NCBI GenBank assembly: GCA_039815375.1 | Contig: JBCBZJ010000031.1 | Location: 1-28,522, forward strand | DNA: 28,522 nucleotides | DNA from: Verrucomicrobiota bacterium | GTDB lineage: Bacteria; Verrucomicrobiota; Verrucomicrobiia; Opitutales; Coraliomargaritaceae | Direction of reading: 5' to 3' | Shown here: piece after piece, positions 2 to 28,427 of the stretch | How the letters are laid out: each line of letters starts with the position of its first letter | Position numbering within the stretch: position 1 is the first letter of the stretch | The notes under the pieces: generated by a model | Seen by the model: the letters and a program-made list of their open reading frames with translations, nothing else | Database searches by the model: none | Told to the model about the DNA's origin: nothing | Made by a program: the position numbers and the translations under genes

Positions 2-1663
2 TTCCATTTCTGGTTGCCGAATGCCATGGCTGGCCCCACGCCGGTAAGCGCCTTTCTTCATTCTGCTACCATGGTTAAGGCAGGGGTCTTTCTGATGGCT
101 CGGCTTAATCCTTCGCTTAGTGGGACCGGACTCTGGGAATACACTCTGGCGGTATCCGGCTGCCTGACCCTTCTGCTTGCGATGTTTCTTGGGCTCTTCC
201 AGAAGGATGTTAAATCCATTCTTGCTTACACGACATTGGGTGTTTTGGGCATTTTAACCATGCTCCTGGGTATCGGCTCCGAGTATGCGATCAAGGCAAT
301 GGTTGTTTTTCTTATTGGGCACGCACTTTACAAGGCAACTCTCTTCATGGTGGTTGGCTCGGTTGACCACGAAACCGGAACGCGTGATGTTACGCTGTTA
401 CGCGGTCTGCGGAAGCTCATGCCGATCACTGCAATTGCAGGCGGACTGGCTGCGCTCTCCATGTCCGGTTTGCCGCCTTTTTTCGGGTTCATTGGCAAGG
501 AGCTTATTTATAAGGCCGGTATTAAGCTGAACGGACTCGAAATTCTTTTCCTCGCTGCCGCACTCGTCGGCAATCTGGCTATGATGGGCCTCGCGCTAAA
601 GGCAGGCATTGGTCCTTTTTTCGGGAAGCCGAATCATGAAGCCTTGCCTAAAAAACCTCACGAAGCCCCCTGGTCGATGTGGATTGGTCCGATTGTTTTG
701 TCCGTATCCGGCCTGATCATCGGGATCATCCCTTTCTGGGTAACCGATTTTATGGTCATTCCCGCGATTGCTGCGATTAAGGGGACCGAAGTGGTTCACC
801 TTGACCTCGCACTCTGGAATTTGGTCAAACCCAACCTGCCTCTCTTGCTCAGTGGGATTACAGTCCTTGGAGGATTCTTTGTTTTCCTTTACCGAGTCCA
901 CTTCTGGGCCCTTTCCGAACGAGTGCTCTCCGGCATCCGTCCTTTCGGTGCGGAAGCCATGTATGAACGTATCTTCAATACCACCATCTGGTTTTCAAAG
1001 GCGCAGACTCGTTGGCTCCAAACCGGTCGCCTGCATGACTATGTCTTCATGATCGTGGTGGTGACGGTCGGTTTCCTGGTATGGGCTATCTCCAACTATG
1101 GCGGATGGTCTTTCTCCGTGGATTGGGCTGAATACGATATTCTCATCGTGGGCTTGGTAGTGATTATGACTATCGCGACGGTTCTCGCTGCAGTGGCAAC
1201 CAGTTACATGACAGTCCTCGTTTCACTCGGCACGGTTGGTTTCGGCATTGCGGTGATCTTCGCTTATTATGGTGCTCCGGACCTTGCCATTACTCAGCTC
1301 CTGGTTGAAGTGCTTACAGTTGTGCTCTTCATGTTTGTTATCCTGAAGCTGCCACCGCTAAAGAATCTTTCGAGTAGGGCGACTCGCATTCGCGACGTCA
1401 TCGTCGCCTCAACTTTCGGCGGCCTGATTACAGTGCTGCTGCTCAAGGCGATCAATATCCAGTTTGATCATGCCATTTCTGAGCGTCTGGCTGAAATGAG
1501 CTATCCGGAAGCAAAAGGTAAAAACGTGGTCAATGTCATTCTTGTAGATTTCCGGGCCTTGGATACTTTCGGTGAGATCGTTGTTGTGGCGACTGCTGCG
1601 CTTGGCATTGCAGCTTTGGTGGCAGCCGGACTCAACAAAGGGAAAGGAGCTGAACCTCGATGA
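2..1663 (+). CDS. mrpA: Na+/H+ antiporter Mrp subunit A (5' end lies outside the window)
   Basis: The frame is open from base 2 (FHFWLPNAMAGPTPVSAFLHSATMVKAG). It carries the NuoL/MrpA motifs AYTT and HALYKA and the MrpA C-terminal motifs APDLAITQLLVE and NVVNVILVDFRALDTFGE. It is followed by mrpB-G with overlapping or adjacent starts and stops. Confidence 0.97.
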   Translation, partial: FHFWLPNAMAGPTPVSAFLHSATMVKAGVFLMARLNPSLSGTGLWEYTLAVSGCLTLLLAMFLGLFQKDVKSILAYTTLGVLGILTMLLGIGSEYAIKAMVVFLIGHALYKATLFMVVGSVDHETGTRDVTLLRGLRKLMPITAIAGGLAALSMSGLPPFFGFIGKELIYKAGIKLNGLEILFLAAALVGNLAMMGLALKAGIGPFFGKPNHEALPKKPHEAPWSMWIGPIVLSVSGLIIGIIPFWVTDFMVIPAIAAIKGTEVVHLDLALWNLVKPNLPLLLSGITVLGGFFVFLYRVHFWALSERVLSGIRPFGAEAMYERIFNTTIWFSKAQTRWLQTGRLHDYVFMIVVVTVGFLVWAISNYGGWSFSVDWAEYDILIVGLVVIMTIATVLAAVATSYMTVLVSLGTVGFGIAVIFAYYGAPDLAITQLLVEVLTVVLFMFVILKLPPLKNLSSRATRIRDVIVASTFGGLITVLLLKAINIQFDHAISERLAEMSYPEAKGKNVVNVILVDFRALDTFGEIVVVATAALGIAALVAAGLNKGKGAEPR

Positions 1664-2103
1664 AGTATTTCATTTTTGCCCAGGCTGCACGGATACTGTT
1701 TCCGACCCTTTTAGTCCTGTCGCTGATTGTACTCTATCGTGGGCATAACCTACCCGGCGGCGGCTTCATTGGTGGACTGATGGCAGCAACGGCTTTCATC
1801 CTTATTGGTATAAGTGACAGCATGGACCAAGCGCAGCGATACCTGCGGACGAACCCGGTCATATTGATGGCATGGGGTCTGGCGGTAGCTTTTATCAGCG
1901 GCATACCAGGTTTATTATCAGGCAGCCCATTCATGACCGGCCAATGGCTGCCCGGCTTCGCGCTGCCGCTTCTTGGCAAGGTTCACCTCGGCACGCCGCT
2001 TGTCTTCGATATTGGCGTCTATATGGTTGTTATAGGCTTCACGCTGCATACGACTTTTAGTCTTGCCCAGCTCAGTCACGTTGAAGAGGAGGAGGACGCT
2101 TAG
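1660..2103 (+). CDS. mrpB: Mrp antiporter subunit B
   Basis: Motifs RGHNLPGGGFIGGL and FDIGVY; ATGA overlap with mrpA. Confidence 0.96.
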   Translation: MKYFIFAQAARILFPTLLVLSLIVLYRGHNLPGGGFIGGLMAATAFILIGISDSMDQAQRYLRTNPVILMAWGLAVAFISGIPGLLSGSPFMTGQWLPGFALPLLGKVHLGTPLVFDIGVYMVVIGFTLHTTFSLAQLSHVEEEEDA

Positions 2104-2105
2104 CT

Positions 2106-2453
2106 GTGGAAGCCTTAATCGCAGTTCTCGTTGGCGTTCTTTTCGCCGCAGGCACCTACAGCCTGATGCGTCGGAGTATCGTGAAACTTGTCATCGGTGT
2201 GATCTTGATTTCTCAGGGAGCCAACTTGCTCGTCTTTACAGCGGGAGGATTGCTTGCAGGCCGACCAGCTTTGGTGCCTGGCGATGGAACAGTGCCACCT
2301 GCACCTTTTGGCGATCCGCTTCCACAAGCCATGGTGCTTACTGCGATTGTCATCGGCTTTGGACTGACTGCTTTTCTTCTCGCACTCGTCGCTCGTGCTC
2401 ATGAAGCCGTCGGTGATGATGATATTAATGCATTTAACAAAACCGACACGTGA
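2106..2453 (+). CDS. mrpC: Mrp antiporter subunit C
   Basis: Motif DPLPQAMVLTAIVIGFG; GTG start preceded by GAGGAGG. Confidence 0.96.
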   Translation: MEALIAVLVGVLFAAGTYSLMRRSIVKLVIGVILISQGANLLVFTAGGLLAGRPALVPGDGTVPPAPFGDPLPQAMVLTAIVIGFGLTAFLLALVARAHEAVGDDDINAFNKTDT

Positions 2454-3964
2454 GCGAGCTCAGCATATTACTACCCATCTTTATTCCATTGGTCGGTGCA
2501 GTGGTTCTGTTGTTGGGGCAACGCTCGCTCGGTGTCCAAAAGCTTGGGGGTGTTCTCTTTTCAGGCCTAACTTTTGCGGCTGCGATCTATCTTTTACTGG
2601 CAGCAGATGCCGCAGGGCACGTTGTTCTGCAGGTTGGTAACTGGAGTGCACCCTTTGGAATCAGTCTGGTTGCCGACCGCTTCAGTGCAGTGATGGTTGC
2701 TGTCTCCTCGTTTATGGGGGCCGCCGTTGCAGTCTACGCACTGAGCGAGATCGATGAGTCACGACTTCGCCGTTTTTTCTTTCCGCTTTATCTCATTCTG
2801 ATGTTTGGTGTGAACGGTGCCTTCCTGACAGGTGACCTCTTCAATCTCTACGTCTGGTTCGAAGTCATGCTGATTGCATCCTTCGTGCTTATGTCAATGG
2901 GTGGCGAACGCGGTGAGCTGGAGGGCGGAATGAAATACGTCTGCCTCAATCTCCTTTCGTCCGTAATGTTCCTTGCGGGGGCCGGTATCATCTATGGCAA
3001 GACGGGAACGCTAAATATGGCCGATATCGCGCAGAACTTGATCCATTCACCGGATGCAAACTGGGTCATTAGCAGCTCAATGCTTCTACTTGTGTCCTTC
3101 GGTCTGAAGGCAGGTATTTTCCCATTTTTCTTTTGGCTGCCCGCTTCGTATCACACACCACCTTCGGCGGTCTCGGCAATTTTCGCCGGGCTTCTGACAA
3201 AGGTCGGGGTCTACGCACTTTTCCGAGCCTATACCCTGATGTTCGTCCCGATTTTTTCCGAGGTGCAGACCATTATCCTTTTCCTTGCCGTGATGACCAT
3301 GATTACCGGGGTCTTTGGTGCTGCCTCTCATTTCGACATGCGGCGTATTCTGTCATTTCATATTGTTAGTCAGATCGGCTACATGGTGTTGGGCCTGGCT
3401 TTCATGACACCGCTTTCTATCGCAGCTGCAATTTTTTATCTGGTTCATCACATTATAGTGAAGACAAACCTCTTTCTCGTCAGTGGAGTAGTGATTCGAC
3501 TCAAAGGTAGTTCTGATCTCGCGAAAGTAGGTGGTCTTGCCAAGTCCGCGCCATGGCTTGCAGCACTTTTCTTTGTTCCGGCCTTCTCACTGGGGGGTAT
3601 TCCGCCACTCTCCGGGTTCTGGGCGAAATTTGCAGTGGTTAAAGCCGGTCTCGAAATTGAAGCGTGGATTTCGGTTACAGCTGCGCTTCTCGTCGGCGTC
3701 TTGACGCTTTATTCGATGACCAAGATCTGGGCTGAGGCTTTTTGGAAGGATCAGCCTGAAGATCATGTGCCTGTTACGACGAAGCATACCGGAGCACTAG
3801 GCTTCATGGTAGGGCCGATTGTAGTCATGGCTGTCGCAACCGTCATCATCGGTCTCTTCGGTGAGCCACTATTCGAATTCTCCGAGCGCGCCGCTGCCCA
3901 ACTGCTCAATCCAGAAGAGTATATTTCTGCCGTTCTCGGCCCTGCAACGGAGGAGCTGCCATGA
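2450..3964 (+). CDS. mrpD: Mrp antiporter subunit D
   Basis: Motifs GDLFNLYVWFEVML, WLPASY, LLTKVG and GIPPLSGFWAK; GTGA overlap with mrpC. Confidence 0.96.
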   Translation: MSELSILLPIFIPLVGAVVLLLGQRSLGVQKLGGVLFSGLTFAAAIYLLLAADAAGHVVLQVGNWSAPFGISLVADRFSAVMVAVSSFMGAAVAVYALSEIDESRLRRFFFPLYLILMFGVNGAFLTGDLFNLYVWFEVMLIASFVLMSMGGERGELEGGMKYVCLNLLSSVMFLAGAGIIYGKTGTLNMADIAQNLIHSPDANWVISSSMLLLVSFGLKAGIFPFFFWLPASYHTPPSAVSAIFAGLLTKVGVYALFRAYTLMFVPIFSEVQTIILFLAVMTMITGVFGAASHFDMRRILSFHIVSQIGYMVLGLAFMTPLSIAAAIFYLVHHIIVKTNLFLVSGVVIRLKGSSDLAKVGGLAKSAPWLAALFFVPAFSLGGIPPLSGFWAKFAVVKAGLEIEAWISVTAALLVGVLTLYSMTKIWAEAFWKDQPEDHVPVTTKHTGALGFMVGPIVVMAVATVIIGLFGEPLFEFSERAAAQLLNPEEYISAVLGPATEELP

Positions 3965-4287
3965 GCCGGGTCTTTGCATCGGTTTCTTTCCTTTTATTCT
4001 ACCTAGCTGAAGTGGTGAAATCCAACTTCCGCGTGGCTCACGATGTTTTAACACCACGCCACCGGATGAAGCCTGGTATCATTTCTGTCGACGTTTCCGG
4101 CATGACCGATCGACAACTTCTTTTTATGGCAAATTTCATCACCATGACGCCTGGCACCCTAGGTCTGACTTTTTCAGACGACCATACAAAGCTCTACATT
4201 CATGCGATGTATATCGACGGCGGCGAGGCCTCCCTAGCGGAAGAACTCAAAAACACCTATGGAAAGCGAGTTTGCCGTGTATTTTGA
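3961..4287 (+). CDS. mrpE: Mrp antiporter subunit E (short form)
   Basis: Motifs ANFITMTPGT and LYIH; operon position. Confidence 0.94.
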   Translation: MSRVFASVSFLLFYLAEVVKSNFRVAHDVLTPRHRMKPGIISVDVSGMTDRQLLFMANFITMTPGTLGLTFSDDHTKLYIHAMYIDGGEASLAEELKNTYGKRVCRVF

Positions 4288-4564
4288 TGAACTCGGCACA
4301 CCGCTGGCAATTGCTACGCTCATCGGATCGCTTTTTTTGCTAGCGGCCTTTGGTCTCGCACTCGTTCGCATCATTAAAGGCCCGACCGCATTTGACCGGA
4401 TCGTGGCACTCGATCTGATCGGAGGTATCTGCCTCTGCGCGATGATTTTCTTCGCCGTCCATTTTGATCAACAGGTTTTGATGGATGCAGCTTTCGCAAT
4501 TGCATTGGTCAGTTTCATCGGAACCGTTGCCTTCGCGCGCTATTTGGGGGGAGGGGAGCAATGA
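4277..4564 (+). CDS. mrpF: Mrp antiporter subunit F
   Basis: Motifs KGPTAFDRIVALD and SFIGTVAFARYL. Start is uncertain: GTG at 4277 chosen, ATG at 4259 also in frame. Confidence 0.93.
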   Translation: MYFDELGTPLAIATLIGSLFLLAAFGLALVRIIKGPTAFDRIVALDLIGGICLCAMIFFAVHFDQQVLMDAAFAIALVSFIGTVAFARYLGGGEQ

Positions 4565-4890
4565 GCTGGATCGTTGGGCTACTCCTCATTACAGGGGCCT
4601 TTTTTGCTTTCGTCGCGGCACTCGGGGTGAATCGCCTGCCGGATTTTTACATGCGTATGCACGCAGCGACCAAAGCAGGCGCCTTTGGAGCCAGCTTGCT
4701 CCTTGTCGCATCTGCAATTCATTTCGGTAGCATGCGCGCTGTTATTACTGCGCTCCTCATTATTGGCTTTTTCTACCTGACTACACCGATTGCTGCTCAA
4801 ACCCTTGCCCAGGTGGCCTATCGCAAAAAGGTTCCTCTTTGGGACAAAACCGGACGCGACCAACTGGCCGAGGACGAGAAAGAAGACTAA
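4561..4890 (+). CDS. mrpG: Mrp antiporter subunit G
   Basis: Motifs RLPDFYMRMHAATK and LTTPIAAQ. Confidence 0.95.
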   Translation: MSWIVGLLLITGAFFAFVAALGVNRLPDFYMRMHAATKAGAFGASLLLVASAIHFGSMRAVITALLIIGFFYLTTPIAAQTLAQVAYRKKVPLWDKTGRDQLAEDEKED

Positions 4891-4941
4891 CCAAAGGCAC
4901 TTCAGAAGCGTAAATTTCTTGCTTCCTCTTGAGATGATACC

Positions 4942-6594
4942 ATGCAGGTGTGCATGCTTGCTCACCTGTCGATTTCATTTCGTCATGTTTTTCTTGTGCT
5001 CGGGCTGCTCGCGCTCCCGTTTTTACAACTGTCTGCTGCGGGCGGCGGTGCTTCAAAGTCCGACGGCCACACCTTTCCCTTGCCGGTGGAAACCTACGAA
5101 GAGCTTCAGGCCGAACGTGCTTACGAGCTCGGTATCGAGCCGAATGAGCTCGGTATTATCGAGATTCTCAAAGTCCGTATCGTAGCCGACCCATTCAATT
5201 TGATTGCGACACTGATTTTCTTCGGTGCGGTGGTTCACACTTTCATGGCGGCGAAGTTCAACAAGCTCGCCCACAAGTATGAGCATAAGCATCGCGAGAC
5301 GATGAACACTCACCAGAAATTCTATGTGGAGGGAAAAGAGCCTGTCAGCTTCAAGGCCACATTGTGCCACTTCCTCGGCGAAGTTGAAGCGATCTTTGGC
5401 ATCTGGCTGATTCCGATGCTTATCTGCCTCGTTGTTATGGAGCCGGATGGACTGATTACCGCAGCCCACTATGTTGACTCCCGCAACTACACCGAACCGA
5501 TGTTCGTTGTCATCATAATGGCGATCGCATCCAGCCGCCCGGTCATCCAGTTTGCCGAGACCTGTATGAAGGCGGTTGCTTCGCTCGGGAAAGAAACTCC
5601 TGCAGCCTGGTGGCTTTCCATCCTCGTGATCGCTCCGCTTCTTGGCTCCTTCATTACTGAGCCCGCAGCCATGACCATTGCTGCGCTCCTCCTCGGCCAG
5701 CAGTTCTATCTGCTTGATCCATCGCCAACCTTCAAATACGCCACACTTGGTTTGCTTTTCGTCAATATTTCGGTTGGCGGCACCCTCACGCACTTCGCTG
5801 CACCGCCCGTGCTCATGGTCGCCAGCACTTGGCACTGGAACCTGCCCTATATGTTTACACACTTCGGCTGGCGAGCCGTCATCGGCATCATTATTGCCAC
5901 AGCCGTCTATTTTCTCATTTTTAAGAAGGAGTTCTCTGAGCTCAATGATAAGGCCAAGCAGCTTCAGAATGAGGTTAAGGCTGAGCAAGAACCAGAGCCC
6001 GCACCACTTTGGGTGATCCTTGTGCATCTAGCCTTCGTTGCCTGGACTGTCATCACGCTGCACCATCCTCCTTTCTTTATCGGCGGCTTCCTTTTCTTTA
6101 TCGCCTTCACGATGGCGACACACCACCACCAATATGACATCCAGCTCAAGTCGCCGCTTCTTGTCGGCTTCTTTCTTGCGGGACTTGTCACCCACGGTGG
6201 TCTCCAGGGTTGGTGGATCTCTCCCGTGCTCAGTATGCTCGCCGAGGTTCCCCTCTTCATTGGCGCGACTGTCCTGACCGCCTTCAACGACAATGCAGCT
6301 ATCACCTTCCTTGCCGCACAAGTCCCGGCCTTTAGCCCGGATGAATTCATCGGTGGCCACTGGGTATCTAAGACGGGTAAGGCTCTAGCTACTGCACAAG
6401 GCCTCGAATACGCTGTTGTTGCCGGTGCGGTTACCGGCGGTGGTCTCACCGTCATCGCAAATGCGCCGAATCCAGCCGGGCAGAGCATCCTCAGCAAATA
6501 TTTCAAGGGTGGGGTTTCACCTCTGCATCTCGTGCTTGGTGCTTTGTTTCCAACAGTCGTGATGGCAGCTTGCTTCATGATCCTGCCCCACTAG
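4942..6594 (+). CDS. Putative Na+/H+ antiporter (DUF1504 / ion-transporter superfamily)
   Basis: Multi-TM protein with HFLGEVEAIFG, GSFITEPAAMT, VNISVGGTLTHFAAPPVLMVA, TAFNDNAAIT and GGGLTVIANAPNPAG. It starts 51 nt after mrpG; exact start uncertain. Confidence 0.88.
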   Translation: MQVCMLAHLSISFRHVFLVLGLLALPFLQLSAAGGGASKSDGHTFPLPVETYEELQAERAYELGIEPNELGIIEILKVRIVADPFNLIATLIFFGAVVHTFMAAKFNKLAHKYEHKHRETMNTHQKFYVEGKEPVSFKATLCHFLGEVEAIFGIWLIPMLICLVVMEPDGLITAAHYVDSRNYTEPMFVVIIMAIASSRPVIQFAETCMKAVASLGKETPAAWWLSILVIAPLLGSFITEPAAMTIAALLLGQQFYLLDPSPTFKYATLGLLFVNISVGGTLTHFAAPPVLMVASTWHWNLPYMFTHFGWRAVIGIIIATAVYFLIFKKEFSELNDKAKQLQNEVKAEQEPEPAPLWVILVHLAFVAWTVITLHHPPFFIGGFLFFIAFTMATHHHQYDIQLKSPLLVGFFLAGLVTHGGLQGWWISPVLSMLAEVPLFIGATVLTAFNDNAAITFLAAQVPAFSPDEFIGGHWVSKTGKALATAQGLEYAVVAGAVTGGGLTVIANAPNPAGQSILSKYFKGGVSPLHLVLGALFPTVVMAACFMILPH

Positions 6595-6848: not shown

Positions 6849-8105
6849 ATGGCAGAAAAAAACACTTTAATTCAATCGATACCTCCGATTCGAACAGAAG
6901 CAGCGTCCACTTCTTCGTCGGACAAGAAGAGTTCAAAAAAGTCTTCACAAAAGCTAGACAGCAGTGAAGCTCCTTCGACTCAGACGAAAATCGGAACTTC
7001 AGAGGTGTATGCTTCTGAACAAGTCGCTTCAAGTGATGCTCCGGTTTCAATCTCACTCTTTCAGGGTATTGTTTACGGCTCCTTTGTGGTGAACCTCGTC
7101 TTCGCTGGCCTTATTGGCGTTTTTCTGATGCGAAGGGTTCGAGATATAGTCACACCACGTTACGCGAAAGCTTGCCGCATTTTTGGTGGAATTTGCCTGG
7201 GAATCAGTCTGCACGGTGTTTTAGCTGCTTTCCTTTATAGCAATTTTTTGTGGGGTTCAGGAAGTGTCCCAATCTTCTTTATGAATGTGCTTTGGATCTT
7301 TGCAGGTCCGGCATTGGCTTTCGTTTTGAGTCATCTGCTGACTCGCTTCGAAACTCCGGTCAAAAATAAGATGTTTATTAATGCGGCCTTCTATGGAGGC
7401 GCGTATTTGTTGTCTGCGATTGCGGTTTCTGCAGTTATCACGGTCAATGCAGGACTGGTTTTTAGTTTGATTTCAATCGGTCTCTTTTTAGTTCCGATAC
7501 TCAGCTATTTTCAGCACCTAAAGCTCGCTTATTCGCGCCATGCCGAGTTAAGAGAGCCTTATGCGAGATTTCTTACTTATACGCTACTCTACGGTCCTTG
7601 GCTCATTCCGGTGTTGGCGCTCGCGAAGTCAGCGGGATTATCGGCAGAAGTTGTTCAACTACTATTGAATCTGATCAGTATCGATCTGGTTGTCTTCGGT
7701 GGACTTGGCCTTGCGCTCTTTGTCAAAAATGAGGAACCAGTAGAGGAGTCGCCTGAATCGGAAGCTGCTAAACCAGTCGTAAAACCAAATTCAAAATCGA
7801 GTAAAAAGCAATCAGTTGATCCTGCCGTCAAAGCAGCTCCCAAGAAACCAAACAAAAACGAATTGGAGGATCCAATTATCCAATTCTTGAACGATAACCC
7901 TGAGGTTGCCCCAGAAAATACAGCTGATTCTTCAGCTCCTACTGAAGCAGCGAAAGGAACGAGACTGCCCAATAAATCTGATACTGCTGCTGGCTTTAAA
8001 ATCCCTTCCCCGGATGGCGCTTTAGGAGCATCGGACGCTTCGGTTGATGCAAAGAATGCTCCAGAAGGTATCCGACCGCCCCGCAAGCCTAAGAAACGCT
8101 TCTAG
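6849..8105 (+). CDS. 7-TM microbial-rhodopsin-like protein lacking the Schiff-base lysine, with low-complexity N- and C-terminal tails
   Basis: Seven hydrophobic segments at residues ~70-292 align by eye with proteorhodopsin helices A-G. Examples: RDIVTPRY ~ RDRVSAKW; PIFFMNVLWIFAGP ~ PTVFRYIDWLLTVP; YTLLYGPWLIPV ~ YIIIFGWAIYPV. The CDS itself is confident; the fold call is an inference. Confidence 0.65.
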   Translation: MAEKNTLIQSIPPIRTEAASTSSSDKKSSKKSSQKLDSSEAPSTQTKIGTSEVYASEQVASSDAPVSISLFQGIVYGSFVVNLVFAGLIGVFLMRRVRDIVTPRYAKACRIFGGICLGISLHGVLAAFLYSNFLWGSGSVPIFFMNVLWIFAGPALAFVLSHLLTRFETPVKNKMFINAAFYGGAYLLSAIAVSAVITVNAGLVFSLISIGLFLVPILSYFQHLKLAYSRHAELREPYARFLTYTLLYGPWLIPVLALAKSAGLSAEVVQLLLNLISIDLVVFGGLGLALFVKNEEPVEESPESEAAKPVVKPNSKSSKKQSVDPAVKAAPKKPNKNELEDPIIQFLNDNPEVAPENTADSSAPTEAAKGTRLPNKSDTAAGFKIPSPDGALGASDASVDAKNAPEGIRPPRKPKKRF

Positions 8106-15687: not shown

Positions 15688-16323
15688 CTAGATCTTTGAC
15701 TTACGTCGTCGCCCACAAACAAATAGTGTGGAGCAACCTAAAATAAGACCAAACGCTGATGGTTCAGGAACAACAGCTCCATTAACTCCCCAAGTGATAT
15801 CAGGAAAAGCGCTTACAGAGGAGAGGTCAAACACTCCAGAACCACTGCTCGGCAAGCCGAGATCAGACAAACTGGTGTTGGCGTAGGTTGCAACAGATGC
15901 AATCGAGTCACCAATTTGTGTCCCAGGAAGAAGGGAGATAGAGTATATGCCTGGTGATAATGCTAAACGGAAGCTACCACCCGAAGTGAATACACCAGTA
16001 GCAGTGTTGGGTATGACTGGCACTGTAAACGGACTACCTGGTGGGAAGACGCTTACAGAAGTATCAACATACTCGTCAAAATTAGCGAAAACCTGCACAT
16101 TCGAAATAAAAACCTGTGTCGATCGCGAATCAACTTGTGTCAACGCTAATCTACCTACGGTTTGAGGCGATACGGATGGCAATTCATCGATGATTCCTGA
16201 TACAGTCACTATTAAGTCAGAGCCAGACTCAGTGAAGTCCAAATTGATAGCTGCGAAGGAATGTGTTGACGTGATGCAAACCCCAAAGGTCAACAGAAAT
16301 ATTCGAGGATAAAAATTTCTCAT
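15688..16323 (-). CDS. PEP-CTERM sorting-domain surface protein
   Basis: Signal peptide, Ser/Thr/Gly-rich body, and C-terminal VPEPS + TM helix + RRRKSK. Confidence 0.92.
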   Translation of the reverse strand: MRNFYPRIFLLTFGVCITSTHSFAAINLDFTESGSDLIVTVSGIIDELPSVSPQTVGRLALTQVDSRSTQVFISNVQVFANFDEYVDTSVSVFPPGSPFTVPVIPNTATGVFTSGGSFRLALSPGIYSISLLPGTQIGDSIASVATYANTSLSDLGLPSSGSGVFDLSSVSAFPDITWGVNGAVVPEPSAFGLILGCSTLFVCGRRRKSKI

Positions 16324-23370: not shown

Positions 23371-25053
23371 TTACAGAGGCTTTGGTTGAATTACCGGCAA
23401 GCTCGAAAGGAAATCGACGGCTGAACTTTCCTTCGTATCCGACCAGACGACGTAGAGGCTCCAGTTCGTAGTGCGTCCAAAGAACTTTCGCCAGGTATCG
23501 GCGATCAGGAAAGCAGGGTAGTTGGCGATAGTGACACCGTCCTCATCGCCGAACCAATAGATAAAGGTGCGCTCGAGGCCGTATTTCTGGTTTTTAAGCT
23601 GCAGCTTGCGAGCTTTCGCAGGAATGCCTTTTTCATGATTGAACTCGACGGTTTTGCTTCCAACAGGTTCCCATCCAAGGCCCATTTGGCAATATTCCGG
23701 CGTATGGATGGTCTTACGATTGCCATCGGAGGGGACAATCATGACACCGACGCGTTCATTCCCGCGCACATATTGACGATTGAGCACGTTACTCCGTTGG
23801 TAGAAGTCTTCGCCTTCTGCATCGGCTATGTCACTGCCTTCCCATTCGGCATATTCACCAAGAAGATAAGGCAGCGAGTAAGTGATGGCACCCGCTCTGA
23901 AGTCGGTGCGAACCATATAGAGCATACCAATGAGCATGCAGGCTGCAGAAATGGTCATAAATGCTGACCAACGTGCCACTGGCTGCAGCGGTATAAACGG
24001 GCGTTTAATGGGCAGGCACACAAAGAAAAAGAAGGTCAGCCCGACCAGGGTAGCCAGTGATTTTATAACCAGAGGAATGGCGACTCCATCGGTTCCGAGA
24101 ATCAGGTTGATCGATTCACTAACCTTCGGGTAAGAAAGGAACATGATCAACTGGAAGGGAACACAGCGGATCGCGTAGTGGAAATTTCGATACGCCAGTC
24201 CGATGGAAAAAACTGCGACCATCAGTGTGACACCGAGCACGTAGAGATTCGGTCCGGGAATTTGGGAAAGTAGAGCCAAGCCGCTTGATATGGCAAAGAT
24301 GATACTCCCGAGGCGCATTCGCTCATGATCTGCAGTTGTTAGTTTCCAGCAGGTAACCCAACCGGCTACGCCGATAAAGAAAAAGATGTATCCAAACCGA
24401 TCAAACTGGTTGTAGACAGTGCCCATCCATGCTGTGACACAGGCTGAGACCACAGGTAAGTATGCCATGGCGCTCAGCACCACGGTAAAGGCGAGCATAT
24501 TGCTCGATGGTGAGGAATCCGTGCTGTCGTGCTCCGTCCTCTTCGCCAGTAGCTCGGTTATAACAAAGAAGCCGGGTAGGGCGATGGCAAAAGCGGTTAG
24601 GCCTATAAGGTCGTGCAAGAGACCTTCTTCGATGACGCTACCACGCATGTAGCTGAAACCTAGCAGGATGGTGAGGCGTAGTCCGTTTGCCAGCAAAGCG
24701 ATGATGGCGGCAAGGAGTGTTGCCACTACCTTGTTAATGGGTGAGATGTGGGGATGGATGCCGCCCCACAGGATACCTACAAAGATGAGAGTGCGCAGCA
24801 TTTCAGAACCACTGCACGCGGGAATGATGTCGAAGGTCATTCCCGGGAGCGATAGGATGGTGCCCGAACGCGACACATCGAGATTAGTGATGCGCAGACA
24901 AATCTCAGCCATCCAGGCAGAGAACTCGCGTAACTGGAGCTCATAAGCTTCGCTAAGAACAGGAAAGATAAAAAAAATCAGTCCGGCAATTGCAAGCGGC
25001 ACGACGATACGGTCGATGCTTGAAGTCGAGGAGCTCGTCGAAGCGCTACTCAT
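23371..25053 (-). CDS. Exosortase-family transpeptidase fused to an EpsI-like domain
   Basis: Catalytic triad C80 (PACSG), R126 (ANGLR), H147 (LHDLIG); C-terminal EpsI motifs DGNRKTIHTPEYCQMGLGW and FIYWF. Confidence 0.9.
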   Translation of the reverse strand: MSSASTSSSTSSIDRIVVPLAIAGLIFFIFPVLSEAYELQLREFSAWMAEICLRITNLDVSRSGTILSLPGMTFDIIPACSGSEMLRTLIFVGILWGGIHPHISPINKVVATLLAAIIALLANGLRLTILLGFSYMRGSVIEEGLLHDLIGLTAFAIALPGFFVITELLAKRTEHDSTDSSPSSNMLAFTVVLSAMAYLPVVSACVTAWMGTVYNQFDRFGYIFFFIGVAGWVTCWKLTTADHERMRLGSIIFAISSGLALLSQIPGPNLYVLGVTLMVAVFSIGLAYRNFHYAIRCVPFQLIMFLSYPKVSESINLILGTDGVAIPLVIKSLATLVGLTFFFFVCLPIKRPFIPLQPVARWSAFMTISAACMLIGMLYMVRTDFRAGAITYSLPYLLGEYAEWEGSDIADAEGEDFYQRSNVLNRQYVRGNERVGVMIVPSDGNRKTIHTPEYCQMGLGWEPVGSKTVEFNHEKGIPAKARKLQLKNQKYGLERTFIYWFGDEDGVTIANYPAFLIADTWRKFFGRTTNWSLYVVWSDTKESSAVDFLSSLPVIQPKPL

Positions 25054-27388
25054 TTAAAGCCTCCAAAGCCGTCTGCACATCACTCCGCCTCAGGAAGGTA
25101 TTTTTCCAAACAGATTCGTCCATGGCTAAGAGTTCCCGATAGATTTCGCCGGATTTATCGGGTAGTCCGGTATCGCGAAATGCGGCGGCGAGATAGACGT
25201 AGAGGAAAAACTGTGGTTCTGCCGAGGCGTCGTAGGCTTCTTGCATACGCTCCTGTACTTCGAGCAGATTGCGCTGCTGAACAGCGAGTGCCGATTGTTC
25301 CAGCGCCAGCTGGATCATGGCAGTAATTTGCAGATAACGCGCGTCTGCATTTTCCGGTTCGGCAGCAAGCACCTTGTTGGCTGTCCTAAGTGCATTGCGT
25401 GGTTGGTTGGTCTGGAGTTGAAGTTTCGCGAGTCGAGTCTGGCTGTAGGTGTCGTCCGGAGTTATATTCAAAACACGACGTAATGAGCCGACCGCTTTTT
25501 CCGGATGTCCGTTCAACTCGTGGATAATGGACTGGCCTTGTAGCGCGACAATGTTGTCAGGTTCGCTGCTGAGTATTTCCCGGTAGAGCTTGCCGGCTTC
25601 GGCACTACGTTGCTGGTCAACTAGAAAACGAGCATAATCAAGGTAAGCAAAAAAGTCGGAAGGATCGATGGCCTGTTTAAAAAAGGATTCAGCGGAATCC
25701 GTTTCGCCATTCTGGAGTGCAACTCTAGCGCGGACCAAATTTCGGTTTCGTTCGGGAAGGTTCTCTGATGCAAGTTTTTCCAGAACTATTTCTGTTTGGC
25801 CCTCCTCGAGGAGAATCATGAGTTCGACCATGCGAATCTCGATGTTCTCTGTGTTGGCCTTGATAAGTGGGGCCACTATCTCGAGTGCTTCTTCGGTCTT
25901 GCCTTCCTGATAGGCCTGATTCGCAAGGGTCATTTGAATGCCGAGATCGTCTTTGAACTGACGACCAAGGGCCTGCTGCATCAGTTCAGGATTGGTTGAC
26001 TGCCCGGTATCGCTCATAACTTGCGCGAAAAGTCGAATTGAAGTGGGTGAGTGAAGCTCACGCTCGTGTAAATGATTTAGCAGGGTCAGTGCTTCGCCCT
26101 GTTTATTATCCTGGTAAAAGCCGCGTGCGGCCTCGGTTATGAAAAGGGGCGATTTGTAGAAAAAACCTGCCATACCCTCGATGCGCTCCAGTGGATGGAC
26201 GTCCTCGATCGCAGTGTAGAGCGCAACCGCACCTTCCGGTCGTCCATTCGTTACGGCCTCGCGGATGCCGAGCCATCGAATTGCCGGTGAATCCCGGAGA
26301 AATGATTCGATACGAACGAAGAGATCGTTACTTGGCGTTTCACCATTAGCGACCTTTCCGAGAAAACTGTAGAGTAGTTTTTCGCCTTCGAGCTCCTTTG
26401 GATTGGCAGTCATGCCGAGCAGCGGAGTGGTCACTGTTCGCGGCGGAAACAAGGACATTTCCTCGGCTGCTAGAGCTCTAAGTTCCCCGAGATTCGAATC
26501 CGGTCCGTTTTGAATGACGCGCAGTAGGGCGGCAATGATTCTGGATTCATGCGCGACAGCGAGCGCAACCGGGTGCTCACTGCGAGTTTGAATAAGCGTA
26601 GCAAGTTGATCCTCAGCTTCAGGCAATCTGCCTTGCATGAGAGTAAACATTGCTTTCTTGAGCATCCACTCACCGTGCGGATCTTCTTCATCCGCCATTT
26701 GGATGAGACCTTCTGCCTGATCAAACTGATTGTCAAAAACGAGCAGTGAAAGAAGGAGGTTGTATCCTTCGGTCGAGAGTTGTGATGTCGATTGTCGATC
26801 AATGAGAAGGCTGCTCGCCTCCTCTCGCCGACCGATGACCTCTAGCTTCCGAGCCATTTGTAAGATAATTGCCTCATCGCCGGTCTTCTCGGCAAGTGAC
26901 TGCCAGATAGCCAGGGCCTCATCGTGAAGTCCATACCGTGAGTAGAAACGACCTTTGGCGTTAAGGTTCTCGGGTGTTTGGTCGAGTTCGGGGAAGAGGC
27001 GGTTGAATTCCTCGATACGTTCAAGGACCGTAACCTCGTAGGTGTCGATGATGATGAGAAGGACAGAGAGTTTTCTAACACCGGACTCCCAGACTGATTG
27101 CATGTGGCGATGTGCATTTTCCGGTTGTCGAAGAATTACGGCAAGAAGGCCGGCTTCGAAAGCGATGTCTGATCTGGATGGGTCTTCACTAAAGGAAGTA
27201 ACGGCAAGGTCGTAGGCTGGCTGCAAGGCACCTTTACGTTGTAGGTCGCGGATGGCGTCGATCGGATCTGCAAAACTTTGGTCCTGTGAGGTTTCTTCTG
27301 GAGTCGATGACAGAAAAAAAGTGGCGCTGATCCCTACCGCGAGTAGGATGACCAGCGTCACTAAGAATGCTAAGACCTTTTTCCTCAT
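25046..27388 (-). CDS. Membrane-anchored tetratricopeptide-repeat protein (PrsT-like context)
   Basis: N-terminal anchor; helical repeats such as YREILSSEPDNIVAL, LRRVLNITPDD and ANKVLAAEPENADARY. Overlaps the exosortase start. Confidence 0.85.
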   Translation of the reverse strand: MRKKVLAFLVTLVILLAVGISATFFLSSTPEETSQDQSFADPIDAIRDLQRKGALQPAYDLAVTSFSEDPSRSDIAFEAGLLAVILRQPENAHRHMQSVWESGVRKLSVLLIIIDTYEVTVLERIEEFNRLFPELDQTPENLNAKGRFYSRYGLHDEALAIWQSLAEKTGDEAIILQMARKLEVIGRREEASSLLIDRQSTSQLSTEGYNLLLSLLVFDNQFDQAEGLIQMADEEDPHGEWMLKKAMFTLMQGRLPEAEDQLATLIQTRSEHPVALAVAHESRIIAALLRVIQNGPDSNLGELRALAAEEMSLFPPRTVTTPLLGMTANPKELEGEKLLYSFLGKVANGETPSNDLFVRIESFLRDSPAIRWLGIREAVTNGRPEGAVALYTAIEDVHPLERIEGMAGFFYKSPLFITEAARGFYQDNKQGEALTLLNHLHERELHSPTSIRLFAQVMSDTGQSTNPELMQQALGRQFKDDLGIQMTLANQAYQEGKTEEALEIVAPLIKANTENIEIRMVELMILLEEGQTEIVLEKLASENLPERNRNLVRARVALQNGETDSAESFFKQAIDPSDFFAYLDYARFLVDQQRSAEAGKLYREILSSEPDNIVALQGQSIIHELNGHPEKAVGSLRRVLNITPDDTYSQTRLAKLQLQTNQPRNALRTANKVLAAEPENADARYLQITAMIQLALEQSALAVQQRNLLEVQERMQEAYDASAEPQFFLYVYLAAAFRDTGLPDKSGEIYRELLAMDESVWKNTFLRRSDVQTALEALNE

Positions 27389-27397
27389 AGGCGTGGT

Positions 27398-28309
27398 TTA
27401 GGTGGATGCAGCTTCGCCGCTGCTGCGGAAGCGCATCTGCATTGCGATGCAGAAAAGTGCAAGTGACATCAGTAAGGCGGTGCTGGGCTCAGGGGCACCA
27501 GATGGCTTTGCGTCAACGATGGTCTGTGAGAAACTACCGGCCTGTAGGAAAACTGCGGAGTCGTAGTAGGCATCACCAGCGTCGGCAATACCGAGTTGTA
27601 TGTTGTAGATTTCGCCAGCCTCAAGTCCTGTGATTTCAGCCGTAAAGACATCGGTGAACCCATCGTATTCGAAGGCATAAGGGGATGAGCCGCCACTGAG
27701 GCTGTTGTCGTTAAAAAGCTCAGGGTAACTGTCGTTGTTGATCGTGTTGATCGCAACCGGGTTGTTACTATTCGGGATGAGAGCTACGTTTTCACCGTCA
27801 ACGAAGAAGCCGAAGACGTCGTTGAAGGAGGAACCCACCCATTCAACATACTCTTCGGAAGCGAATGAGAAATTGAAGTAGGCGGAATCGCCGCTACTGA
27901 CGAAATCGAATGAGAGAATTGTCGCGTCGTAGGTGTTGTAGCCGGGGATTAGCCCGTTAAGTGTATCATCTCCGCCTGTGCGGGAATTGAAACTCGTGCT
28001 TCCACTGGTATTTTGATTGTTGCCTGCGGAGGAGGCTCGACCGCTGGTAAGAATGACACCAGACTCGATATCATTCCCCGGAGCATATCCACCAGTAAAG
28101 TAACCTGCAGATTGGTTGTTTCCGGTATATTGGATGTTGCTGATTTCGATTCCTGGGCCGACAAGTGATTGTGCCAGAGCCTCCGGAGAGTCCATCGGCG
28201 TAATAACAGTTTGAGCAAAAGCCTGTCCTGCAATAAGGATGGCTGAAGGGGCGATGAGCCGTGTGATCGTTACTTTGGATAGAGCTTTCATTTTATTGTC
28301 TTTCTTCAT
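27398..28309 (-). CDS. Choice-of-anchor L domain protein with a PEP-CTERM-like sorting signal
   Basis: Signal peptide ending AFA-Q; motifs SGVILTSG, DATILSFDF, FASEEY..VGSSFNDVFGFF, EYDGFT and IADAGD..YDSAVFL; tail APEPS + TM. Start set at ATG 28309, 7 nt after AAGAAGG; 28315 and 28291 are alternatives. Confidence 0.87.
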   Translation of the reverse strand: MKKDNKMKALSKVTITRLIAPSAILIAGQAFAQTVITPMDSPEALAQSLVGPGIEISNIQYTGNNQSAGYFTGGYAPGNDIESGVILTSGRASSAGNNQNTSGSTSFNSRTGGDDTLNGLIPGYNTYDATILSFDFVSSGDSAYFNFSFASEEYVEWVGSSFNDVFGFFVDGENVALIPNSNNPVAINTINNDSYPELFNDNSLSGGSSPYAFEYDGFTDVFTAEITGLEAGEIYNIQLGIADAGDAYYDSAVFLQAGSFSQTIVDAKPSGAPEPSTALLMSLALFCIAMQMRFRSSGEAAST

Positions 28310-28427
28310 GCCCATACCTTCTTTTGAAAATAGGGCGTTATACTTAGTTAAAATTAGTGGTTTTATCAATGCTTTAAACGGTTTGGATTAATCTTTTTTA
28401 TGTTATTTGCTTCGCTCTTAAAAACTA

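Follow-up and report, generated by a model that had tools for sequence, protein, structure and literature searches.

Rhodopsin-like proteins without the retinal-binding lysine are already known from bacteria and archaea. Rh-noK of marine betaproteobacteria, reportedly the subject of a study by Yamauchi et al. in 2019, is a bacterial type-1 rhodopsin that lacks the lysine of helix G. In the accessible text of two works that cite it, Rh-noK is found in tandem with a working proteorhodopsin (PR) and is rescued by a lysine (PMC10308929, bioRxiv 2025.04.29.651185). The flotillin-associated rhodopsins (FArhodopsins) have a rhodopsin fold without retinal, and their genes belong to a conserved cluster that is not photosynthetic. 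According to the available part of PMC10308929, they adjoin flotillin, the lysine is retained in the marine representatives, and they were always found together with a pump paralogue; the available part of the preprint likewise reports a pump paralogue for both FArhodopsins and Rh-noK. In archaea, the haloarchaeal opsin-related proteins (ORPs) form an expanded lysine-less clade of proposed non-light sensors, which the accessible sections of Becker et al. 2016 (PMC4915679) link to HAMP/MCP transducers and flagellar genes. The rhodopsin surveys of PMC10284914 and PMC9601134, as far as their available text goes, were restricted to sequences that have the lysine of helix G, so that lysine-less sequences are missing from them by design. 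Two uncharacterised lysine-less clusters appear in PMC13739731, the accessible main text of which never names Verrucomicrobia.

The gene discussed here, at positions 6849..8105 (forward strand) of a 28,522-nucleotide contig of a Verrucomicrobiota bacterium (genome G000; the whole stretch is called the window below), belongs to a family of lysine-less type-1 rhodopsins that is new and specific to its lineage, and whose set of partner genes had not been described. Unlike Rh-noK, as it is presented in the accessible sources, the proteins of this family mostly occur without a pump, do not stand in tandem with PR, and have lost most pocket residues. Where the FArhodopsins, in the same sources, have flotillin, the partners here are a protein with a kinase fold, a ParA ATPase and two unknown proteins, and neither the 27 window ORFs nor the recurring neighbours scanned include a flotillin gene. 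In contrast to the ORPs as far as they are described in the available text, the carriers lack FliG (0/20, compared to 10/41 other genomes), and a HAMP/MCP transducer is neither present in the window nor recurrent among the neighbours. The preliminary description of this locus had suspected that the long-tailed architecture is new, and the literature searched, which covered few subscription journals, indeed contained no description of the architecture or of the family.

The reading frame is intact, as stated earlier, and encodes 418 amino acids. Its GC3 is 0.41, compared to 0.56-0.71 in the neighbouring genes, and scans for promoters and terminators at its ends returned nothing usable. The DNA is present in marine metagenome runs, with the region on one contig in one run, which may be its source, and only in pieces in contigs of three other runs; none of the runs listed as containing it is an RNA run. 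Elsewhere in the window, genes for an exosortase, a TPR protein and a PEP-CTERM-like protein stand in a row (23371-28369), and there is a weak PEP-CTERM match at 15688-16323.

The preliminary description had recognized a seven-helix, proteorhodopsin-like protein, and structure prediction bears out the seven helices and the microbial rhodopsin fold. The AlphaFold2 model of residues 64-298, calculated from a 19-row alignment, has a mean pLDDT of 92.5 and a pTM of 0.88, and contains seven long helices (residues 70-97, 103-134, 142-164, 172-192, 199-230, 237-261 and 266-293), so that the rhodopsin fold occupies residues 68-293 (7050..7727). Foldseek aligns the model to the Exiguobacterium rhodopsin ESR (PDB 4hyj) with a TM-score of 0.84, and the matches listed are all rhodopsins wherever the title names the molecule. 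In an exhaustive structural alignment against 48,161 chains, microbial rhodopsins come first (Z 23.2, rmsd 2.3, 213 residues aligned); ranks 1-35 have Z values of 16.8-23.2, GPCR-like folds reach at most 13.7, and no unrelated membrane family matches better. At the sequence level, the protein as a single query has no rhodopsin match in Pfam (including Bac_rhodopsin, PF01036), NCBIfam or the PDB sequences, and with the true rhodopsin of its own genome it gives only E=0.010. Similarity to rhodopsins beyond chance therefore appears only with relatives. A single one of 19 members matches PF01036 (E=0.0054), whereas with the 19-row profile of the membrane domain, 14 of 15 PDB matches (E up to 10) are microbial rhodopsins, the best at E=0.0012 and with the FArhodopsins 9r21 and 9r23 in the top rows. 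A basal relative from another family (L017) aligns to the true rhodopsin of G000 with 28% identity over 230 residues (E=2e-16). Feature matches to PF01036 in the Atlas score 0.87-0.88, below the bar of 0.9, and the top structure there is a GPCR. Taken together, the model and the profile comparisons confirm the protein as a homologue of type-1 microbial rhodopsins with a seven-helix fold.

Loop charges are distributed unevenly, with on average 4.7, 3.1 and 4.7 lysine and arginine residues in loops AB, CD and EF, compared to 0.7, 0.5 and 0.6 in BC, DE and FG. By the positive-inside rule, the N-terminus is predicted to be outside and the C-terminus inside.

Residues were compared in a 61-row alignment of 39 family members, 21 lysine-bearing rhodopsins and one other lysine-less protein, anchored on the motifs of the true rhodopsin of G000 (L001). 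The bacteriorhodopsin numbers are used as labels, placed via these motifs. The alignment reproduces the residue map that had been drawn by eye, including H122 in the column of PR H75. In helix C (7272..7340), W149 and P154 (W86 and P91) are kept, and R82, D85, T89 and D96 are replaced by M145, L148, A152 and V159, the DTE motif of the proteorhodopsin clade reading L/A/V. Helix F (7557..7631) keeps P254 (P186), and has P250 and I253 in place of the retinal-pocket residues W182 and Y185, which leaves W149 as the only one of the pocket aromatics. At the DxxxK position of helix G (7677..7691), S277 and V281 replace D212 and K216. Both counterion carboxylates are thus absent (L148 and S277), as is the Schiff-base lysine, and helix G has no lysine anywhere. 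Lysine is found in the Schiff-base column in 0/39 family members. All 21 true rhodopsins, in contrast, have R82, D85, T89, W182, Y185, D212 and K216. Judged from these residues, the protein is not photoactive in the usual way, and the earlier view of a lysine-less scaffold with its N-terminus outside, kept for a non-photochemical role, is supported by the fold, the alignment and the loop charges.

The alignment indicates that the pocket decayed stepwise, from the basal members of the family to those in family f1. The nine basal members have lost D85, T89 and K216, and eight of them have Ile at the G122 position, but R82 (9/9), W182 (8/9), Y185 (9/9) and D212 (9/9) are retained. In the 25 members from f1, neither W182 (0/25, Pro in 22) nor Y185 (0/25) is left, R82 is kept in three, and H122 is present in 16; this three-way comparison of true rhodopsins, basal members and f1 leaves out five divergent members. 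Family-wide, no polar residue of the pocket is conserved, and the tryptophan at the W86 position (W149) is the sole invariant. Since further pocket residues were lost in steps, restoring the lysine alone would be unlikely to yield a pigment.

Relatives of the protein were found in 19 of 61 related genomes, with 24-36% identity, and three full-length sister proteins are 37-41% identical to it. A search of 1.84 billion representatives yielded 80 clusters at E<=0.001, and 69 at E<=1e-10; the weak rows include five true rhodopsins with the DTK motif and one unrelated lysine-less type (P0081), which has G-A-Q at the helix C motif and falls outside the family in the tree. The family, which comprises about 70 clusters, is distributed in Opitutales/Puniceicoccaceae and has no Pfam name, and members that were looked up are either not annotated or annotated as 'hypothetical protein'. 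Cultured carriers are Thalassobacterium maritimum SDUM461003 and T. sedimentorum SDUM461004. In the tree, the 39 members form one side of a 100/100 branch, and the protein from G000, with a branch length of 0.56, is not on a long branch for the family. As the tree has no outgroup and does not separate the relations among its 21 true rhodopsins, it supports a single loss and identifies no parent clade, whether PR proper, as suggested in the preliminary description, or another. Retinal binding was probably lost once, early in Opitutales.

By profile score, the closest lysine-bearing relatives are the DTK-motif rhodopsins of Opitutales, which retain R, D, T and K in helix C as well as the DxxxK of helix G, and lack long tails. 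They probably correspond to clade P5 of Bar-Shalom et al. 2023 (PMC10284914), matched by motif and taxon as given in the accessible part of that work. The same holds for the residues and tails of ESR. Out of 190 pairs, the 22 closest were evaluated; ten of these are saturated, and the other 12 give dN/dS values of 0.05-0.155 over the barrel. It is thus under purifying selection in the relatives, the gene of G000 having no close DNA partner. This is the outcome of the dN/dS comparison that had been suggested at the outset.

Some single loci deserve mention. The family gene of G341 is broken into pieces of 95 and 276 residues (L075:6001-7139), through a frameshift or an assembly error. Locus L070, filed under Yoonia sp., has the cluster described below with neighbours of the Opitutales type and 49% identity to the first row of the query alignment, and is probably a mis-binned contig. 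After the genes of the basal members in f12 and f16, an NAD-dependent epimerase gene was found in all four loci read (L017, L019, L120 and L122). The true DTK rhodopsin of G000 is encoded on contig C10 (L084:8746-13410), preceded by a coiled-coil gene and two small genes, and followed by crtY and blh. The small genes have no Pfam match, and their products presumably resemble roadblock/LC7 proteins. The three upstream genes are also present in G003, and the locus of G000 possibly represents an operon for a sensory rhodopsin and not for a plain pump. A coiled-coil gene after c5 in f12 (L110:4300-4905) and one near the DTK rhodopsin of G021 (L086:727-1611) share 39% identity over 59 residues (E=5e-7), a score that coiled coils inflate; for the G000 counterpart, the comparison gives E=0.016. 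The similarity may point to an ancestral connection of the ParA module with the operons of DTK rhodopsins.

The partner genes of the family lie outside the window, on another contig (C12), and were hence invisible when only the window was considered. In the relatives, they form a cluster on one strand together with the family gene, in the order lysine-less rhodopsin, Hanks-type kinase fold, c2 (241 residues), ParA/MinD ATPase and c5 (about 345 residues). The kinase-like gene follows in 24 of the 25 distinct f1 carriers. The exception is G000, in which the other four cluster genes are intact (C12:74615-78353), apart from the gene at 6849-8105. A 115-residue ORF upstream of the kinase gene in G000 (L080:8224-8571) was considered as a remnant and rejected, as it gave only background scores with the terminal-motif matrices. 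Two genomes of family f32 (G092 and G192) show this five-gene order too, with a member that has diverged strongly. In f12 and f16, the genes for c2, ParA and c5 stand together at another site, where the kinase gene is missing. In the relatives sample, c2 is present in 20/20 carriers, including two from other families in which the genes are unlinked, and in 3/41 non-carriers; across the order, in a sample of 351 genomes, it is found in 30/32 carriers (all except G085 and G107) and 16/319 other genomes, counts that are given without a test statistic and overstate independence because kin share genes; carriers also tend toward larger genomes. Of the 16 genomes with c2 only, three have a one-helix substitute in its place and two a member so divergent that it falls below the threshold; in G017, the cluster is cut by the end of the contig. 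The other ten yielded no member as far as they were examined. In G008 and G253, the cluster genes have no tail protein beside them, and G113 has, in front of the kinase gene, one for a membrane protein without detectable homology. The kinase and c2 genes of G008 (L081:1298-8278) follow a microcompartment locus on the same strand, again with no tail protein in front. A gene for a type II/IV secretion ATPase (PF00437) is located near the cluster in G000 (L080:5830-6927) and in one relative (L068:1626-2831).

The kinase-fold protein is probably catalytically dead, as judged from its active site residues. Both catalytic aspartates are present in 0/17 sequences read; 15 have Glu at the Asp of the DFG motif, and the two with Asp there have Asn at the Asp of the HRD motif. 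For c2 and c5, no Pfam, NCBIfam or convincing PDB match was obtained. The former appears to contain a small SH3/Tudor-like barrel (with Z values of 5-6.7 for some 60 residues, which is below the bar set by the tool). The latter has no usable Atlas match, and a likeness to an alpha-CTD that had been considered found no support. A second c5 paralogue in G000 (C63, L089:5688-6629) ends in a basic amphipathic segment, presumably resembling the membrane-targeting helix of MinD; the c5 proteins of f12, f16 and f32 end in a similar segment, the copy of the f1 cluster does not. The predicted complex of the kinase-fold protein, c2 and tail residues 384-418 scored 0.21, compared to a mark of 0.32, which speaks neither for nor against a contact.

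Outside the barrel, three conserved motifs stand amid variable linkers, and all three are kept in the protein from G000. The N-terminal motif (6849..6890, residues 1-14, with conserved M1, E3, L7, P12 and P13) is the tip of a Ser/Thr-rich, hydrophilic tail of 67 residues, which is predicted to be outside. The presumably cytoplasmic Pro/Lys-rich C-tail (7728..8102, residues 294-418) is 125 residues long and contains a short DPII-type motif (7869..7889, residues 341-347), also present in two one-helix substitutes, and the basic C-terminal motif (8049..8102, residues 401-418), which is found in lineages with the kinase-like gene. All kinase-bearing genomes with a tail protein that was read have this last motif (18 from f1, and G010, G092 and G192), and it is absent in 6/6 carriers from f12, f16 and f22, which have no kinase orthologue. 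In G010, G235 and G363, the slot of the barrel gene is occupied by a gene for a one-helix protein with matching terminal motifs, and the same topology, as there is a single helix followed by basic residues. In G014 and G030, the barrel and a one-helix tail protein are encoded by two separate genes, with the latter between the barrel gene and the kinase-like gene. Genus g9 holds both the full form (G031) and the one-helix form (G235 and G363), and it is thus probable that the barrel was lost more than once. In comparisons with helix A, two of the four one-helix proteins give E about 0.001 without composition correction, which hints only weakly at a derivation from this helix. We read these patterns as suggesting that the tails matter more than the barrel.

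What the family does is best approached from the tails and the partner genes. There is, in our estimate, about an even chance that a type-1 rhodopsin was recycled as the membrane anchor, or landmark, of a ParA positioning module, which would consist of the ParA/MinD-type ATPase, c2 and c5, joined in two families by the kinase-fold protein. The N-terminal motif on its long linker would hold on to something outside the inner membrane, the helices would keep the protein in place in the membrane, and its basic, proline-rich C-tail would recruit the kinase-fold protein and c2, which in turn would set the site of ParA action. The arrangement is reminiscent of HubP of Vibrio cholerae. According to the available part of PMC8789113, this membrane protein is tethered on the outside and recruits ATPases of the ParA family through a long cytoplasmic region of low complexity. 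The analogy is one of working principle, with no relation in sequence or fold, and the ParA link is here one of gene linkage. As far as the source describes it, HubP is built from LysM, a single helix and a tail that is acidic, whereas the family has a rhodopsin barrel and a basic tail; the N-tail of the G000 protein contains no Pfam domain, and so no LysM of the HubP type. Flagella were ruled out as a cargo by the absence of FliG from the carriers. Microcompartments are present in 17/20 carriers compared to 12/41 other genomes, a difference confounded by kinship and genome size.

The one-helix substitutes favour the anchor, whereas the retention of the barrel and its purifying selection favour a receptor: most carriers keep the full barrel, which a mere anchor would not need. 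The carriers without detectable c2 and the clusters without a tail protein also speak against the anchor, as do the unlinked position and the low GC3 of the gene in G000. In the strongest rival reading, which is possible although doubtful, the barrel would sense something other than light, such as a lipid, a small molecule, an ion or the state of the membrane; through the tail, the signal might then reach the kinase-fold protein and the ParA module, much as in a GPCR. Such a role would fit the retention of the barrel as a gene of its own in G014 and G030 after the tails had split off, the polar residues of the basal members together with H122 in f1, and the location of lysine-less haloarchaeal opsins next to transducers, according to the accessible part of PMC4915679. 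It is at odds with the three genomes that dispense with the barrel, and with the loss of the basal polar set in f1, and a classical phosphorylation output is unlikely because the kinase is without the full catalytic set in 17/17 sequences. For the copy in G000, it is rather unlikely that an orphan has been drifting since it left the cluster while the rest of the family serves as anchors. Its isolation among the f1 carriers, its low identity to matches in relatives and low GC3, and the broken copy in G341 could be explained in this way, but the frame and the tail motifs are intact, as are the four partner genes on C12, and the sister proteins and the branch length do not indicate unusual divergence. 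The copy has moved but retains the full set of tail motifs, so that it most likely continues to act in trans.

Other explanations keep the protein closer to light or to its neighbours in the window. Non-covalent binding of retinal or a carotenoid, as a store or antenna, is suggested by the intact fold, the invariant W86 and the presence of crtY and blh in G000. These genes are on contig C10, next to the true rhodopsin, and none of the 27 window ORFs is a blh or crt gene, as observed before. Binding of this kind is nevertheless very unlikely, as 30/32 carriers have no true rhodopsin and the pocket residues G122, W182 and Y185 are replaced. That the protein serves a true rhodopsin pump as a regulatory subunit, which has been proposed for Rh-noK and FArhodopsins, was among the functions considered in the preliminary description. 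G000, one of the carriers with a true rhodopsin, has the DTK type, as have all three pump-bearing carriers of the relatives sample. However, PF01036 rhodopsins occur in 2/32 carriers of the 351-genome order sample and 3/20 of the relatives sample, and never adjacent to the family gene in the loci read, so that this role is highly improbable and, for the family, largely refuted. The initial association with Na+/H+ antiporters was based on position: the gene is on the same strand as the MrpA-G cluster and the Na_H_antiport_3 gene (14..6594, forward strand), 254 bases downstream of the latter. These genes have no BLAST match in 34 other loci (which include some genomes twice, and of which 19 have flanks of only about 1.5 kb), and the pump positions of the protein have no carboxylate. 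The antiporter neighbourhood is incidental and peculiar to G000, and a partnership in pH or sodium balance is hardly credible.

The choice between the anchor and the receptor can be tested directly, because nature has supplied the controls, in the form of members with half a pocket, split genes, one-helix substitutes and cultured strains. If, as we consider possible but not probable, a light-driven pump turned into a ligand- or membrane-sensing receptor with a C-tail that couples it to a Hanks-type pseudokinase and a ParA ATPase, then bacteria would have found an independent route from a rhodopsin to a GPCR-like receptor, here one that controls intracellular placement. There would be living intermediates for each step, with the pocket half kept, the pocket lost, the barrel split off and the barrel lost. 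The known bacterial lysine-less cases adjoin a functional pump, so that light still plays a part, whereas this family is mostly pump-free. To the standing question of what lysine-less opsins do in general, it brings a fixed set of partner genes, and these point to an undescribed ParA module in non-flagellated Opitutales.
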